Source: a virus (taxonomy: Duplodnaviria > Heunggongvirae > Uroviricota > Caudoviricetes). Taken from it: DNA of 17,058 nt. The DNA lies in IMG/VR virus record IMGVR_UViG_2609460221_000007, positions 1-17,058 of that record; one strand, given 5' to 3'. The translations under genes were made by a program, and so were the position numbers. A model generated the notes under the pieces. It ran no database searches. It was not told the DNA's origin and was given only the letters and a program-made list of their open reading frames with translations. The first letter of the stretch is position 1. Each line of letters begins with the position of its first letter. Shown in pieces: positions 2,301-12,928 of this stretch.

Positions 2301-2666
2301 ATGGCACTGACGAAAAAACAACGTGCAGAATTGCGCATGAAGTTTGGCGGTCGCTGTGCTTATTGCGGCTGTGAACTTGGCGAAAAGTGGCATGCAGACC
2401 ATGTAAAACCGGTCATTCGTTTTAATGGAAATATGCTTCACCAGGAACGTGACGATATATCCAACATGGTTCCGGCATGCCACCCATGCAATCTGCACAA
2501 GCATTGCAGTAGCCTGGAAGACTATCGGCGAATTATCAGTGATGGTCGTCGTGAATTCCTTGCGTCCGGGAAAGGCAAAGCGCTGGTTCGTATGGGATTG
2601 GTTGAAATGAAATCTGACCCGGTTGTGTTCTGGTTTGAAAAATATCAAGAAGGGGCTACAGCATGA
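2301..2666 (+). CDS. HNH endonuclease
   Basis: Canonical HNH motif directly visible in translation: C-A-Y-C-G…H-A-D-H-V-K-P…N-M-V-P-A-C-H-P-C-N-L-H-K. RBS AAAGGAGA (2288-2295). Confidence 0.8.
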   Translation: MALTKKQRAELRMKFGGRCAYCGCELGEKWHADHVKPVIRFNGNMLHQERDDISNMVPACHPCNLHKHCSSLEDYRRIISDGRREFLASGKGKALVRMGLVEMKSDPVVFWFEKYQEGATA

Positions 2667-3649
2667 CCACTATTACCAATAAGAAACAGTATCCCAGCGA
2701 GCAATATCTTAATGAGCTTATCACCAACATAGAGTTTGCTGCAAGGGCACCAGTTGAAGTCGTGAGCGCAATGGCAGCAGAGCTACAGAAGCGGCGCGAA
2801 GCTGATAGCGCAGAACCAGTTGCTTATATTTTCAAACATCCGGCCGGGAAATTATTCTGGGCTTTAACGGATGAAAGCAATAAAGAGCAAGCGGACGTTA
2901 TTCCTGTTTATGCCGCCCCTCCAGTGCCAGTAGTATCTGAAGAAAAACCAATGCCTAACCCTCTTAAAATGTACGCGGTCGATGATGTTGCCGCTATTGC
3001 AGAGGTGAGAGGCTGGAATGCCTACCGCGCCGCCATGCTTCAGAGTCAGGGGGAAGGCAACCCTCATGTAACCCCGGCTCGCCTGCCTGGTGGTTTCACC
3101 ATTGAGGATGCGAAGGTGTTACATGAAGACCTTGTACGTAGCCACATAAGCCAGGCTTTAAGTGGCGAAAAGATGAAAAAGAAAGATCGCGATGCTGATT
3201 TGCGCTGGATTCATGGCGTAATAGTTCAGGCCGCGTGGTTTGTAAAGGCATCACTGGAGCAGAATGCACTATCGGGCAACTCTCCGGTAATTCCTGGTGA
3301 GGTGTTGTCCGCAATCCGGGAGGTTGCCAGGATTCGCGCCGATTTCGATGATTTTGACGGTGACAGGCGAGGTATCGGTGATTGTCTGGATGAGGCCGAG
3401 CAAGAGCTTATCGTTACCATTAACAAATATGCCAGTCAGTTGGCAGTAGAGCCGGTAGTACCTGATGACGTTCTGGAACAGACAGTAGCGTCGCCAGCGC
3501 TAGGTAACCAGGTTAGCGAATTAACAATGTGGGTTAAACGACTGGTCAGTCAACTGAAAAAAGCTCAGCCGGACTGCAAATTACCGGAGAAGGCGATGGA
3601 TTACCTGAAACGAAATGGACTGATAAGCGTGGAGGATGTTTTACGATGA
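2663..3649 (+). CDS. hypothetical protein (328 aa); N-terminal region paralogous to the 1892-2299 product
   Basis: ATG 2663 overlaps the HNH stop (ATGA-type coupling). Long ORF with phage-like codon usage; contains the 'YAAPPVPVVSE' motif. Confidence 0.65.
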   Translation: MTTITNKKQYPSEQYLNELITNIEFAARAPVEVVSAMAAELQKRREADSAEPVAYIFKHPAGKLFWALTDESNKEQADVIPVYAAPPVPVVSEEKPMPNPLKMYAVDDVAAIAEVRGWNAYRAAMLQSQGEGNPHVTPARLPGGFTIEDAKVLHEDLVRSHISQALSGEKMKKKDRDADLRWIHGVIVQAAWFVKASLEQNALSGNSPVIPGEVLSAIREVARIRADFDDFDGDRRGIGDCLDEAEQELIVTINKYASQLAVEPVVPDDVLEQTVASPALGNQVSELTMWVKRLVSQLKKAQPDCKLPEKAMDYLKRNGLISVEDVLR

Positions 3650-3769
3650 ATATTTAGACTAAAGAGTTTGTAACGCTATGTAAGTGATTTTTTCTGGTTT
3701 AGATATTTATATGTCCGGCCAAATTGAGGTGTGTTTAAATGTTATTGCACATTGATTGTAGGGGGAATA

Positions 3770-3949
3770 ATGAAAAACGCATTGCAGTTTTTGTTTGTTG
3801 CGTTCTGGTTGTTCGCATCATGTATGCCCATCATCTTCACAGCAAGGTATATGGAAAAAATTGATGTTTTGATATTAATGTTTGGACATATAAATGCCCT
3901 TTTTTTAGGGGTGTTCATGGCGGTCATGTGCATTGAATACTGGCGGTAA
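3770..3949 (+). CDS. possible small two-helix membrane protein (59 aa)
   Basis: ATG 3770 preceded by GGGGGA (3761-3766); strongly hydrophobic translation (…LQFLFVAFWLFASCMPIIF… / …NALFLGVFMAVMCIEYW); AT-rich. Could be spurious. Confidence 0.3.
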   Translation: MKNALQFLFVAFWLFASCMPIIFTARYMEKIDVLILMFGHINALFLGVFMAVMCIEYWR

Positions 3950-4004
3950 ATACAGCGAACGCCATTGGTTTAGTTGGATATTTACTGTGCCGGACAAAAA
4001 CGGT

Positions 4005-4032
4005 TTGCGGGGAAATCTTAGTTAAGTAGAAT
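4005..4032 (+). promoter_or_regulatory. candidate sigma70 promoter for the hok transcript (TTGCGG -35, 16-nt spacer, TAGAAT -10)
   Basis: Hexamers read directly at 4005-4010 and 4027-4032; position is appropriate for a long hok leader. Not verified. Confidence 0.25.
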
Positions 4033-4151
4033 AACTGCGGGTGCTTGAGGCTATCTGTCTCAGGCATGAACACCAAAAGGCAGATAGAGAAAAGCCCCAG
4101 TTAACATTACGCGTCCTGCAAGACGCTTAACATTAATCTGAGGCCATATCT

Positions 4152-4211
4152 ATGCGACACATAGAGATTAGCCTCTTACGGACCGAAAGGTCAAGGAGAA
4201 GCAGGCTATGA
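4152..4211 (+). CDS. mok-like leader ORF translationally coupled to hok
   Basis: ATG 4152; 19 codons; stop TGA 4209-4211 overlaps the hok ATG (4208-4210). This is the arrangement expected for hok/mok loci. Confidence 0.3.
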   Translation: MRHIEISLLRTERSRRSRL

Positions 4212-4333
4212 AGCAGCAAAAGGCGATGTTAATCGNCCTGATCGTCATCTGTTTAACCGTCATAGTGACGGCACTGGTAACGAGGAAAGACCTCTGCGAG
4301 GTACGAATCCGAACTGGCAGACGGAGGCTCTGA
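4208..4333 (+). CDS. hok: Hok/Gef-family type I toxin (HokD/RelF-like)
   Basis: RBS AGGAGA (4193-4198); translation MKQQKAMLI(x)LIVICLTVIVTALVTRKDLCEVRIRTG… matches the Hok/Gef transmembrane core as recalled. The C-terminal tail as written (…RRRL*) differs from recalled homologues and may reflect a 1-nt indel or sequence error. Confidence 0.75.
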   Translation: MKQQKAMLIXLIVICLTVIVTALVTRKDLCEVRIRTGRRRL

Positions 4334-4415
4334 TTCGTAGACTACTAATCTGAGTAAAAGACCCAGCGGGGAAAGAACCACGCCGGGACTAGTTAATAAG
4401 ATATTTATAGCGTGG

Positions 4416-4757
4416 CTATTCTTTTTTTGCGGTATAGACTTTTTCGCCTGAGAAGTCTGGAGCTACCCAAAAGTTAATATTAAACTGAGCATCATCGCTT
4501 AGTTCAACACGGTGCCAGTATTGTGGTGGGCTTGTTGCAAAAGCGCCAGCATTAATGACTACTTTTATCTCCGGTTCAGTAGCATTCTCATCAGCAAAAC
4601 CATAATATGTTACAGTACCTTCCATCACGCATAACTGTCCAAAAACACCTGCTGCTGTATTATGATGTGTTAATAACGCTGAAGGTACGTTCTCTTTTGT
4701 GAAGAACGGAGTTGAGCGTTTGATTACCCAGTCTTTAGGAATTCTCTTGTGTGTCAT
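4416..4757 (-). CDS. YeaR-like / DUF1971 family protein (TehB-associated cupin-like domain)
   Basis: Start ATG (MTHKR…) preceded on the minus strand by GGGAGGTG. Translation shows RSTPFF…VMEGTVTYYGFADENATEPE…FNINFWVAP, closely paralleling the recalled E. coli YeaR pattern. Convergent with hok. Confidence 0.6.
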   Translation of the reverse strand: MTHKRIPKDWVIKRSTPFFTKENVPSALLTHHNTAAGVFGQLCVMEGTVTYYGFADENATEPEIKVVINAGAFATSPPQYWHRVELSDDAQFNINFWVAPDFSGEKVYTAKKE

Positions 4758-5124
4758 AACCACCTCCCATAAAACATGCATTATAAATGCACCTTTTTGA
4801 GGGTTATGTCAAGCTGTTATGAAACACATAATTGATATGTTGATTAGAGGAGAAGATAGAATCAATATGGTTGTTTTTCGTATAACTATTTGTTTTACTT
4901 TTAGTTTGTGCATTCTGTGTGTTAGGAATAACTTATTAAAGTTTAACTAAAAAATCTCGATATAGTCCGCATAGATTACTGTTACTGAATCTTATTGTGT
5001 GCATTAGTTGTGTTCTGAAATTTCAATTTAATTACTTATGATATATTTTTAACGATAAATGTTTTCCGGGTGAAAGACAGTGGGGGATGAGATAAGCAAT
5101 ATATCATTAATCTTGATTATTTCC

Positions 5125-5186
5125 AGGATGCCTTTACTGTGCATATAAATAAATCATATACGCATCAAATAATGTAAAGGCATCCT
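5125..5186. repeat. perfect 13-bp inverted repeat (AGGATGCCTTTAC … GTAAAGGCATCCT) with 36-nt AT-rich spacer
   Basis: Arms at 5125-5137 and 5174-5186 are exact reverse complements, read directly; lies in an ORF-free AT-rich region. Confidence 0.6.
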
Positions 5187-5625
5187 TTTAGATATATCTT
5201 ATCAAATGTTAATGATTTGAGTGGGAAACATGATTCCAGAAACTAATCATGCGGCTACTTTATAAAAATAATGCCCATATAAAACAGCCAGCGAAAAGGA
5301 TTACGGATAAAAAAGGAGCGAGATGTGCATAGTTGTTATTTTCCATGTTTAACCACCTTAAATAATTGATGATGACGGGATGTGCATCTGTAATGCTTTT
5401 GTTGAAATGTTATGATNAAAAAAGAACTTTTTCATAACATTAAAATGTAATTTATCTAATCGTTTTTAATAATAAGTGTTGTATTTCTATCCTTGTATCA
5501 GCTATTTGATATGTAGTGTTTGTTCATGTTATGTGGAGCTTTACACCATAGCCAGTTTATTTATACTTTATTCGTCAGCCTGAACAACTGGCATCTGCTG
5601 CACTGCGCCATCGAGAGATTGAGAA

Positions 5626-9613: not shown

Positions 9614-11074
9614 ATGAATACATCTCATGTAAGAGTTGTTACTCATATGTGTGGGTTCCTGGTTTGGCTCTATAGTCTTTCAATGTTGCCACCAATGGTT
9701 GTAGCATTGTTTTATAAAGNAAAAAAGCCTGTTCGTTTTCTTTATAACTTTCGTTATATTTTTTTGCATTGGTGGCGGAGCGTGGTATACAACTAAGAAA
9801 TCTGGCATTCAATTACGTANCCGTGATGGGTTTATTATAATTGTAATGTTTTGGATTTTGTTTTCTGTTATTAGTGCATTCCCTTTATGGATTGACTCAG
9901 AACTTAATTTAACGTTCATTGATGCTCTGTTTGAAGGGGTTTCTGGAATAACAACAACAGGAGCAACTGTAATTGATGATGTTAGTTCATTACCTCGGGC
10001 ATATTTGTACTATCGGTCACAGTTAAATTTTATAGGTGGTTTAGGAGTTATTGTTCTGGCGGTTGCTGTATTGCCATTATTGGGTATTGGTGGTGCAAAG
10101 CTTTATCAGTCAGAAATGCCGGGGCCATTTAAGGATGACAAACTCACTCCCCGCCTGGCCGATACGTCACGGACACTGTGGATAACTTATTCTTTATTAG
10201 GTATTGCTTGTATTGTCTGTTATAGACTTGCAGGAATGCCTTTGTTTGATGCTATTTGTCACGGGATTTCCACAGTTTCGCTTGGTGGTTTCTCAACTCA
10301 TAGCGAGAGTATCGGATATTTTAATAACTATTTGGTTGAGCTGGTGGCTGGTTCTTTTTCCCTGCTATCGGCTTTCAACTTCACTCTTTGGTATATTGTT
10401 ATTAGCAGGAAAACGATAAAACCTTTAATCAGAGATATTGAACTTCGTTTCTTTCTGTTAATAGCCTTAGGGGTGATCATTGTTACCTCTTTCCAGGTCT
10501 GGCATATAGGTATGTATGACTTGCATGGAAGTTTTATTCATTCGTTTTTTCTTGCCAGCTCCATGCTCACTGATAATGGTTTAGCTACGCAGGATTATGC
10601 AAGTTGGCCCACGCACACGATAGTGTTTTTGCTGTTGTCAAGTTTCTTTGGGGGATGTATAGGTTCAACTTGTGGTGGAATTAAGTCACTTCGATTTCTT
10701 ATACTTTTCAAACAAAGCAAACACGAGATAAATCAGCTTTCTCATCCCAGAGCGTTGTTGAGTGTAAATGTAGGAGGGAAGATAGTTACAGATCGTGTAA
10801 TGAGGTCTGTATGGAGTTTCNTTTTTTCTTTATACTCTCTTCACGGTGTTTTTTATACTGGTGTTAAATGGTATGGGATATGATTTTCTTACATCATTTG
10901 CAACAGTGGCTGCATGTATTAATAATATGGGATTAGGTTTTGGGGCTACTGCATCGTCATTCGGAGTGCTTAATGACATTGCAAAATGTTTAATGTGCAT
11001 AGCTATGATTCTTGGTCGCCTTGAAATTTATCCTGTTATTATATTGTTTTCAGGNTTTTTTTTGGCGCTCCTAA
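9614..11074 (+). CDS. trkG: potassium uptake protein TrkG (Trk system membrane component); reading frame interrupted only at ambiguous bases
   Basis: Three consecutive ORF fragments (frames shift at n 9720, n 10821, n 11055, each in a homopolymer run) together translate to a TrkH/TrkG-type polytopic transporter starting MNTSHVRVV… and ending …FFWRS* when the frame is corrected. AT-rich. Known cargo of Rac-type prophages. Confidence 0.8.
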
Positions 11075-11160
11075 TATATGGCTGATTTATAATTGTGAGT
11101 TTAATATTATGTTGACTCACTCATTGATCCAATACCTAACTTTACCAGCAACACCTCCGT

Positions 11161-11211: not shown

Positions 11212-12003
11212 ATGAGCGAGAAATTAAAGATAGTCTATCGCCCATTACAAGAATTGTCACCGTATGCGCACAACGCCAGGACGCACAGTACTGAGCAGGT
11301 GGCACAACTGGTAGAAAGTATTAAGCAATTCGGCTGGACTAATCCGGTGCTGATTGACGAAAAGGGCGAAATTATTGCGGGTCACGGTCGTGTTATGGCG
11401 GCTGAAATGCTCAAAATGGATTCTGTTCCGGTCATTGTTCTGTCTGGCCTGACGGATGAGCAGAAAAAGGCGTACCGCCTGGCAGATAATCGCCTGCCGA
11501 TGAATGCTGGCTGGGATGAAGATCTGTTGCGGATGGAGCTGTCGGACCTAATCAATGCTGATTTTGATGTCTCCCTGACAGGCTTCATCCCGACAGAAAT
11601 TGATGAACTGTTGACGGATGTTTTGCCCGGTACAGGAAATGAGGAGGAGCCGTATACGACGAAAATTGATACGCCTGTTTATGAGCCGTCGGGCGGTAAA
11701 CCGGATATCAGTGAACTGTACGACGATACGAAAACTCAGGAGCTGATCAGCCGGATACGTTCGGCGTCCCTTGAGCCTGATATTGAGAAATTCCTCCTGT
11801 GTGCGGCAGAACGTCACACGGTGTTTAATTTCAGCAGAATTGCGGACTATTACGCTCACGCCCCCTCTGAAATTCAGTGTTTTTTCGAGGAGTCGGCGCT
11901 GGTGATCATTGATTATCAGCAGGCTATTGAAAATGGATTTGTCCGGATGACGCAGCGCATGGTGGAGATCATGCATGGTGGTGAGGAGGAGGAATATGCG
12001 TGA
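11212..12003 (+). CDS. ParB-like nuclease domain (ParB/Srx N-terminal domain) protein
   Basis: N-terminal region with the characteristic …PVLIDEKGEIIAGHGRVMAA… ParB-N motif; acidic C-terminus; stop overlaps the next start. Confidence 0.75.
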   Translation: MSEKLKIVYRPLQELSPYAHNARTHSTEQVAQLVESIKQFGWTNPVLIDEKGEIIAGHGRVMAAEMLKMDSVPVIVLSGLTDEQKKAYRLADNRLPMNAGWDEDLLRMELSDLINADFDVSLTGFIPTEIDELLTDVLPGTGNEEEPYTTKIDTPVYEPSGGKPDISELYDDTKTQELISRIRSASLEPDIEKFLLCAAERHTVFNFSRIADYYAHAPSEIQCFFEESALVIIDYQQAIENGFVRMTQRMVEIMHGGEEEEYA

Positions 12004-12928
12004 TGATTTTTGCGCCTTTATTCTGACTCACGGGCGACCGGACAAAGTTCTGACTTACCGGACGTTGCGTCGTGCTGGCTATACCGGGAAAATTTTTATC
12101 GTTGTTGATGATGAAGATAAGACACGGCATCAGTACATGGCTGAATTTGGGGAACAGGTGCTGGTGTTTTCCAAAGCCGATATCGCCAGTCGTTTTGACG
12201 AAGCCGATAATTTCTGTGACCGCCGCTCAATTTTTTACGCCCGTAATGCCTGTTTCGACCTGGCAAAACTGGTCGGGTGTAAATACTTCATTCAGCTCGA
12301 TGATGATTATCACGAGTTCCAGTTTCGGGTGGATCGCAACTATGACCAGGCCTATTTTCCGATAAGGAAACTGGATGCGATCCTTTCTGAAATGCTGGCG
12401 TACTACGAATCAATACCTGCTCTTTCCATCGCTATGTCGCAGGGCGGGGATTTTCTTGGTGACAATGGCGGCCATGCTTCGTGGGTGAAACGCAAGGCAA
12501 TGAACAGCTTTATCTGTTCGGTTGAACGACCGTTCTCATTCATGGGGCGCATTAACGAGGATGTGAATACGTACACGAATCTCGGTCGCTGTGGTGAATT
12601 GTTTATGACGATCGGTGCTGTCCAGTTAGGGCAGAAACAGACGCAGAAAAACAGCGGCGGAATGACCGAGCTGTATCTGGATTCCGGAACCTACGTTAAA
12701 AGTTTTTACTCCGTCATGTATGCGCCGTCGTGCGTAAAAATCTCACTGATGGGTGCCAGCCATAAACGCATTCACCATCAGGTCACCTGGAACAACGCTG
12801 CAGTAAAAATCCTTCACGAAAAATACAGGAAGAAGACACCCTGCATATCAATGGGGGTGACAAATGATTCCGTATTCGAAAGTCGAGTCTCTGGCAGCGT
12901 GCCGGATGACTGCACAACAAATCGCTGA
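11996..12928 (+). CDS. GT-A-fold glycosyltransferase-like protein (nucleotide-sugar transferase-like, DxD motif)
   Basis: ATG 11996 preceded by GGAGGAGG, overlapping the ParB-like stop (ATGCGTGA). Translation shows AFILTHGRP…IFIVVDDED…FIQLDDDY, the beta-strand/DxD pattern of GT-A enzymes; no TM segments. Function inferred from motif only. Confidence 0.55.
   Translation: MRDDFCAFILTHGRPDKVLTYRTLRRAGYTGKIFIVVDDEDKTRHQYMAEFGEQVLVFSKADIASRFDEADNFCDRRSIFYARNACFDLAKLVGCKYFIQLDDDYHEFQFRVDRNYDQAYFPIRKLDAILSEMLAYYESIPALSIAMSQGGDFLGDNGGHASWVKRKAMNSFICSVERPFSFMGRINEDVNTYTNLGRCGELFMTIGAVQLGQKQTQKNSGGMTELYLDSGTYVKSFYSVMYAPSCVKISLMGASHKRIHHQVTWNNAAVKILHEKYRKKTPCISMGVTNDSVFESRVSGSVPDDCTTNR

Follow-up and report, generated by a model that had tools for sequence, protein, structure and literature searches.

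The type I toxin-antitoxin loci that make up the hok/sok family are well studied, decayed hok loci are a known phenomenon and the protein discussed below is already present in RefSeq, so that these aspects are established knowledge. In the canonical system, pairing of the 5' tac element with the 3' fbi element keeps the full-length hok mRNA inert, slow trimming of the 3' end generates the active mRNA, and the active mRNA is silenced by Sok at the mok initiation region with the aid of RNase III (PMC9841398, PMC8309996). The hok/sok (parB) locus of R1 possesses a functional fbi, 3' processing and post-segregational killing, and mutations in its 3'-UTR stem-loop remove the active mRNA (PMC9841398). 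The R1 mok frame comprises 70 codons and runs out of frame across hok, although its translation is needed only as far as the hok start, that is, for 19 codons (PMC9841398). Chromosomal hok loci are often inactivated, and mutations, insertions or rearrangements have disabled the family members hokA, hokC, hokD and hokE of E. coli K-12 (PMC8309996, citing Pedersen & Gerdes 1999). Among the prophage-borne members, hokW-sokW (mokW) of the Stx phage 933W and the Sakai prophage Sp5 encodes an intact, experimentally toxic HokW of 51 aa with fbi downstream, and in Sp5 it assists lysis and phage release (PMC8621323). An intact prophage hokD in E. coli AR_0013 (WP_000813254.1) likewise encodes 51 aa, followed by a 9-bp 3' stem-loop, fbi, a GC-rich terminator and then the gene rem.

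The locus described here belongs to the same family, with hokW-sokW of 933W/Sp5 and the prophage hokD alleles as its nearest counterparts, and is carried by a 17,058-nt stretch of viral DNA (IMG/VR record IMGVR_UViG_2609460221_000007; hereafter the window). The window comes from a lambdoid prophage of E. coli, the kind of prophage in which the loci of 933W and Sp5 are also found. The gene order comprises early/nin-like genes, a DUF1367-YbcO-Q(DUF1133) block, holin and Rz, trkG, and the small followed by the large terminase gene. About 80% of the window shows 99% identity with prophages of complete E. coli genomes and with induced phages, vB_EcoS-666R9 among them. Its letters include 10 n characters; trkG is read as two ORFs, with an n at 10821 inside the first of them, about 60 nt ahead of its stop. 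The hok ORF (4208..4333, plus strand) is convergent with a gene of the DUF1971/TehB-like (YeaR) family at 4416..4757 on the minus strand, a moron, i.e., a prophage gene acquired from elsewhere. An earlier note based on the letters alone had proposed a YeaR-like gene in this orientation, and the Pfam match to DUF1971 (E=3.5e-26) bears this out. Searches of the truncated Hok, the DUF1971 product and the two upstream ORFs against the PADLOC models gave no match.

The hok ORF encodes 41 aa (MKQQKAMLIXLIVICLTVIVTALVTRKDLCEVRIRTGRRRL; RefSeq WP_001445775.1). Its assignment as a Hok/Gef toxin gene, made earlier from inspection, is supported by the profile search, with Pfam HOK_GEF (PF01848) matching at E=1.3e-15 and 57.1 bits (cutoff 22) over profile positions 1-34 of 42, and PHROG 251 ('MokW-like host killing') at E=3.2e-23 over positions 1-38 of 50. 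The NCBIfam models for the Hok family toxin (NF007279) and HokA (NF007290) score 34.8 and 32.1 bits, under their cutoffs of 73 and 89, respectively; these are curated whole-protein cutoffs that demand a full-length toxin of about 50 aa. Codons 1-37 specify the residues of HokD and HokW, being identical to those of 933W/Sp5, and thus retain the N-terminus, the transmembrane helix and the RKDLCEVRIRTG segment; Cys30, the hok Shine-Dalgarno sequence and the start codon are also present. Thereafter the frame is shifted to RRRL and ends at a TGA, so that the tail reads ...RTGRRRL in place of the ...RTGQTEVAVF(T/V)(A/D)YE.. of intact HokD and HokW, a divergence from HokD-like proteins that the earlier note had pointed out and the alignment confirms. 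Beyond the transmembrane helix, HokW/HokD have a counted net charge of about -1/-2, as against +5 in the 41-aa form. No entry with RTGRRRL was found in the available part of the supplementary text of a Hok catalogue preprint, and no solved structure of Hok was found.

The region upstream of hok has retained the organisation of the described systems. Rfam RF01794 ('sok') matches 4039..4210 on the plus strand with 106.7 bits (gathering score 59; E=8.4e-24) over its entire length (model positions 1-157 of 157), as compared with 113.5 bits in 933W. In 933W the hit falls on the hokW sense strand, opposite the annotated sokW, which indicates that the Rfam 'sok' family describes the sense hok leader; locating Sok from RF01794 therefore requires a strand flip. 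The segment 4039..4210 accordingly represents the 5' leader of the hok mRNA, with the tac 5' end GGGUGCUUGAGG, the Sok target and the mok ORF, up to the hok AUG. A promoter for this mRNA is predicted by homology at 4005..4032 on the plus strand, with a -35 TTGCGG (4005-4010), a 16-nt spacer and a -10 TAGAAT (4027-4032) that is conserved across all the aligned alleles. The predicted transcription start, at about G4039, agrees with where the Rfam hok-leader model begins.

A short mok-like leader ORF of 19 codons is present at 4152..4211 on the plus strand (translation MRHIEISLLRTERSRRSRL), with a candidate Shine-Dalgarno sequence GAGG at 4140-4143 and a TGA that overlaps the hok ATG as ATGA. In 933W these 19 codons continue in frame into hokW under the annotation mokW (70-aa MokW), whereas here a TGA stands at the hok ATG. 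The R1 locus resembles the present one in its tac 5' end, its 19 mok codons before the hok start, its Hok/Gef toxin and a Sok (predicted for the present locus) antisense to the mok translation-initiation region, and differs in the length of mok, which has 70 codons in R1 as against 19 here. As judged from the sequence, the predicted leader ORF corresponds exactly to the required portion of R1 mok, though the canonical mok is of 70 codons, and mok-hok coupling is predicted to be intact in the truncated copy. The earlier description of a coupled 19-codon leader thus stands as regards the ORF and its overlap with hok, but a leader of this length is not the form expected of the canonical hok/mok arrangement.

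A Sok-like antisense RNA of about 70 nt is predicted on the minus strand at 4088..4158 (running from 4158 to ~4088) by carrying over the 933W sokW annotation (L005:1594-1664, minus strand) by alignment; sokW itself is both annotated and Northern-verified. In its computed fold this RNA has a single-stranded 5' tail, which is complementary to the mok start region including the AUG, then a long hairpin and a U tail; the energy is -29.8 kcal/mol (z=-4.41), and none of 200 shuffled sequences was equally stable. Its putative promoter at 4165..4194 on the minus strand consists of a -35 TTGACC (4194-4189), an 18-nt spacer and a -10 TAATCT (4170-4165). The -10 shares its position with that of sokW and aligns with the hexamer TAACCT, which was mutated in the promoter-less sokW construct (primers YO-421/YO-422; Takada et al., PMC8621323). 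The 5' recognition tail is the most variable part between the Sok of the truncated allele and sokW, with several substitutions and a 2-nt indel separating the Sok 5' tail/mok start region from that of 933W. A minus-strand Sok had been expected in the earlier note at around 4100-4200, and homology now places a predicted one close to there. The promoter and terminator sought for it on the minus strand were obtained as a putative promoter and a hairpin with U tail by homology and folding, but a strict consensus scan of 3850-4850 reported neither promoter nor terminator. The scan was empty because it demands closer hexamer matches than the known Sok and hok promoters offer, and both promoter assignments hence rest on homology to 933W and Sp5.

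In contrast to the upstream region, the 3' end of the locus is severely altered. Barring the n, positions 3911-4325 of the window are 100% identical to the intact 51-aa hokD locus of E. coli AR_0013, with which both putative promoters, the leader, the short mok, the predicted sok and codons 1-37 are shared, and the alignment fails beyond this point. The segment 4326..4356 (plus strand) comprises decayed Hok C-terminal codons (FVDY...), for which hokW is the closest match. Relative to hokW, four lesions can be recognised in the alignment, namely a 1-nt deletion in codon 38, a change of GTCGCTGTC to GCTCTGA, which loses a net 2 nt and gives rise to the TGA, a GAA to TAA substitution and a 3-nt deletion ahead of the ancestral TAA. 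The last 14 codons of Hok are thus hit by a frameshift and three in-frame stops. As aligned, the damage is a cluster of four lesions together with the loss of the whole 3' regulatory end, rather than a single truncating indel.

An imperfect hybrid hairpin lies at the junction (4357..4385), as recognised from folds and from comparison with 933W and with phage DUF1971 loci that lack hok. The left arm is similar to the hok 3' stem-loop, the right arm and its flank to the DUF1971 gene's terminator. Homology to hok loci ends inside the hairpin, at ~4383, and from ~4357 the flank shows homology to what lies 3' of the DUF1971 gene, terminator included, in phages without hok. AGACCC.GCGGGG is a short similarity through which the hybrid may plausibly have arisen. 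Read on the minus strand, UCUUUUAC comes after the hairpin, for which reason the hairpin probably terminates the DUF1971 transcript. In intact alleles, a perfect 9-bp stem-loop is followed by fbi (CUCAACGCACCC) and a GC-rich terminator, and the full mRNA of the intact allele folds with the 5' tac paired to the 3' fbi (-167.7 kcal/mol, z=-7.2). In the truncated copy the 3' stem-loop is degraded and the native hok terminator is absent, and no match to fbi with up to three mismatches was found anywhere near hok in the window. With the 3' half lost, the killing mechanism of R1 cannot operate here as described. The K-12 hok loci have mostly been hit by IS elements, and hokD by loss of its 5' region; the present copy differs from them in keeping its 5' region and losing its 3' end to a moron junction.

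A replacement for fbi was considered at 4446-4469. Its duplex with the tac 5' end (-20.9 kcal/mol; the second-best plus-strand site in the whole window) matches the tac-fbi energy of the intact allele (-20.5). However, the same tac complementarity occurs in the DUF1971 genes of hok-less phages and is thus a property of the DUF1971 coding sequence, and the candidate was rejected. The pairing also vanishes from the minimum-energy fold of longer transcripts.

The distribution of the truncated allele was examined in complete genomes, assemblies and viral contigs. Together with DUF1971, it is present at 99% identity or more in 104 of the 5,426 complete E. coli genomes (~2%), and for the exact 41-aa protein the counts are at least 1,000 contigs, 2,444 index blocks and three induced phages. 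PGAP/RefSeq labels WP_001445775.1 as a 'Hok/Gef family protein', an intact CDS rather than a pseudogene. The segment 4127-4440 is identical base for base in two complete E. coli chromosomes, one induced phage and six IMG/VR contigs, and is invariant in 10 sources with three different upstream contexts. The earlier note had left open whether the short tail was a real truncation or an indel in poor sequence. It is a real and widespread allele, and an indel error is contradicted by the identity of independent assemblies; the n at 4236, to which the possible indel had been tied, is a plain substitution, occupied by C in every homologue and giving Ala10.

DUF1971 followed the truncated allele wherever it was read, i.e., in the 104 complete genomes and in 8 of 8 sampled assemblies. 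Conversely, hok did not adjoin DUF1971 in any of 80 other species or 30 other IMG/VR phage contigs, and the exact junction was absent from a set with one genome per species. Neither an intact ancestor of the 3' allele nor an intact hok beside DUF1971 was found in complete E. coli genomes, IMG/VR DUF1971 loci and the 80 species. The constant linkage to DUF1971, together with the hok-less homologues of DUF1971 elsewhere, points to a junction of single origin, and the sequence comparisons indicate one junction event with later spread among lambdoid prophages. The allele is found behind at least three different upstream modules. The window is itself a recombinant, of the AR_0013 intact type to 4126 and of the truncated type from 4127, and this switch implies a crossover within the shared hok leader and coding sequence. 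In one IMG/VR viral contig a further deletion, of 92 bp, has taken away the predicted Sok promoter, mok and the hok start, which suggests that decay is ongoing.

Taken together, these observations make it quite likely that the locus is a 3'-degenerate, non-killing hok remnant, which probably still makes Sok. Sok is most likely still expressed, and would pair with the mok translation-initiation region in the mRNA of its own locus and in identical leaders at other places in the cell, by which mok/hok translation would be blocked and the duplex exposed to RNase III cleavage. Without fbi, the hok mRNA would not be stored as an inert full-length form, so that the delayed-activation step of post-segregational killing would be lost, and with it, most likely, killing itself. 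Any peptide made would be devoid of the acidic periplasmic tail and is most likely non-toxic, the periplasmic C-terminal domain of Gef/HokC having been proposed as the toxic domain (PMC8509063); going by the positive-inside rule, the +5 segment after the transmembrane helix should in addition hinder export of the tail. The remnant probably persists by hitch-hiking beside the DUF1971 gene, and its conserved leader probably doubles as a site of homologous recombination between lambdoid prophages. The frequency of ~2% in complete E. coli genomes and the intact-looking promoters count against a mere remnant and are compatible with retained function; hitch-hiking with the moron accounts for the frequency of the allele equally well.

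The alternative that survives best, though it is unlikely, is that of a functional short Hok, a 41-aa membrane toxin with perhaps an altered or inverted topology, which would form with Sok a type I pair devoid of fbi. Such a pair could hasten lysis at prophage induction in the manner of hokW-sokW, for which the role in lysis and phage release in Sp5 provides a precedent (PMC8621323). The promoters, mok coupling, Shine-Dalgarno sequence, start codon, transmembrane helix and Cys30 all look intact, and the allele is both widespread and, in its annotation, an intact CDS. Numerous type I toxins fall below 41 aa in length (PMC8309996), some having only 19-35 aa, and a helix with a basic tail could still harm membranes. 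Single Ala substitutions at conserved residues, including E41A and E49A, leave R1 Hok toxic according to a bioRxiv survey of Hok. The C-terminus of R1 Hok is nevertheless sensitive to other changes, since M46I and Y48N, C-terminal FLAG tags, a 17-aa extension and 18 of the 20 possible premature stops arising by single substitution abolish toxicity (PMC9841398). The three in-frame stops and the in-frame deletion downstream further indicate that constraint on the tail has long been relaxed; fbi is absent and the 3' stem-loop that stabilises the mRNA is degraded; a further-deleted derivative exists; and the change of charge to about +5 would conflict with export of the tail to the periplasm by the positive-inside rule. 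A broader proposal, that the locus is not junk and has either kept Sok as a trans-acting antidote to the intact hokD-type toxins of rival prophages or plasmids with the identical leader, or turned the 41-aa Hok with its polybasic tail into a neo-functional membrane peptide of altered topology, is considered improbable.

Still less probable is a locus maintained for Sok only, as an anti-addiction or immunity remnant in which Sok would neutralise the hok mRNAs with the same leader from co-resident or incoming prophages and plasmids. The predicted Sok gene and the leader are 100% identical to those of the intact hokD allele in other E. coli prophages, each genome carrying the truncated allele has 2-6 hok-like places, and the 5' recognition tail of Sok is variable, as expected of a specificity determinant. 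The variant with the 92-bp deletion, however, has dispensed with the Sok promoter, and linkage to the DUF1971 moron explains persistence of the locus without any selection on Sok. A sequencing or assembly artefact, in which indel errors near the n at 4236 produced the divergent tail, might be suspected from the 10 n characters of the window and from the split trkG with its n at 10821, but has a negligible probability and is rejected, since the n is a plain substitution and independent projects have yielded the identical sequence of 4127-4440, in complete genomes, induced phages and metagenomic viral contigs.

If the locus is the 3'-degenerate remnant favoured here, WP_001445775.1 is probably a pseudo-toxin, with an mRNA that lacks fbi, the 3' stem-loop and the terminator, and ought to be left out of counts of active toxin-antitoxin or defence modules. 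A role in abortive infection or stabilisation, which the earlier note had raised for hok loci, is accordingly unlikely for a copy that has lost its tail and its 3' control elements. The locus suggests that a type I toxin can be disabled by a moron junction which spares the antitoxin gene, and that lambdoid prophages use the conserved hok leader as a joint for recombining with one another.

The DUF1971 gene on the other side of the junction is called by RefSeq with a length of 342 nt. Its product is of 113 aa from the annotated start, while the longest ORF reaches 4781 (121 aa), and the PHROG 34268 match covers residues 9-121. An AT-rich tract (~29% GC) is present upstream of the gene.

The Rfam model RF01794, labelled 'sok antitoxin', was found to match the sense strand of the hok leader, both in the window (4039-4210) and in the hokW-sokW locus of phage 933W (1544-1718 in L005, the sequence carrying that locus), where the match lies on the strand opposite to the annotated sokW. 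Users of RF01794 must therefore flip the strand in order to locate Sok. A further-deleted form of the truncated hok allele was identified in L008 (IMGVR_UViG_3300007747_000074), which carries an additional 92-bp deletion, equivalent to window 4132-4223, that removes the promoter and the 5' end of Sok, the mok leader ORF and the Shine-Dalgarno sequence and start of hok.

A 13-bp complement to the tac element at the 5' end of the hok mRNA occurs at window 4446-4469 on the plus strand, antisense to the final codons of the convergent DUF1971 gene, and the predicted duplex (-20.9 kcal/mol) equals in strength the genuine pairing of tac with the 3' fold-back element, fbi. It was rejected as a meaningful pairing and judged coincidental, since DUF1971 genes without a neighbouring hok carry the same complement.

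Immediately 5' of the hok promoter lies an ORF on the plus strand encoding a very hydrophobic protein of 72 amino acids (3731-3949); searches of Pfam, NCBIfam, PHROG and PADLOC gave no match for it. Over at least the final ~40 nucleotides, the part covered by the alignment (3911-3949), the ORF is identical in the prophage of E. coli AR_0013, which carries the intact hokD allele and has no annotated feature between the upstream gene and hokD. Most other carriers of the truncated allele possess, ~500 bp upstream of hok and divergently oriented, a gene with KilA-N and BstA_C domains encoding a BstA-like abortive-infection protein (1705-2478 in L128, L130, L131 and L133-L135); an ORF of 328 amino acids and unknown function (2663-3649) occupies its place in the window. 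On the other side, between the DUF1971 and DUF1367 genes, is an AT-rich tract (4800-5550, ~29% GC) that contains few ORFs, as is characteristic of moron DNA gained by horizontal transfer.

The trkG/TrkH potassium transporter moron (9846-11085, plus strand) is divided into two overlapping ORFs, one covering profile positions 41-412 and the other 420-491. The break falls near 10846-10883, and an n at 10821 lies inside the first ORF, ~60 nucleotides ahead of its stop; the split could represent a true frameshift or a problem of sequence quality. Between trkG and the terminase genes are located a ParB_N-domain ORF (11212-12003) and an adjoining plus-strand ORF of 317 amino acids (11975-12928) matching the Pfam domain TAGT, 'TET-Associated Glycosyltransferase' (E=1.2e-34); this may be a phage DNA-modification module.
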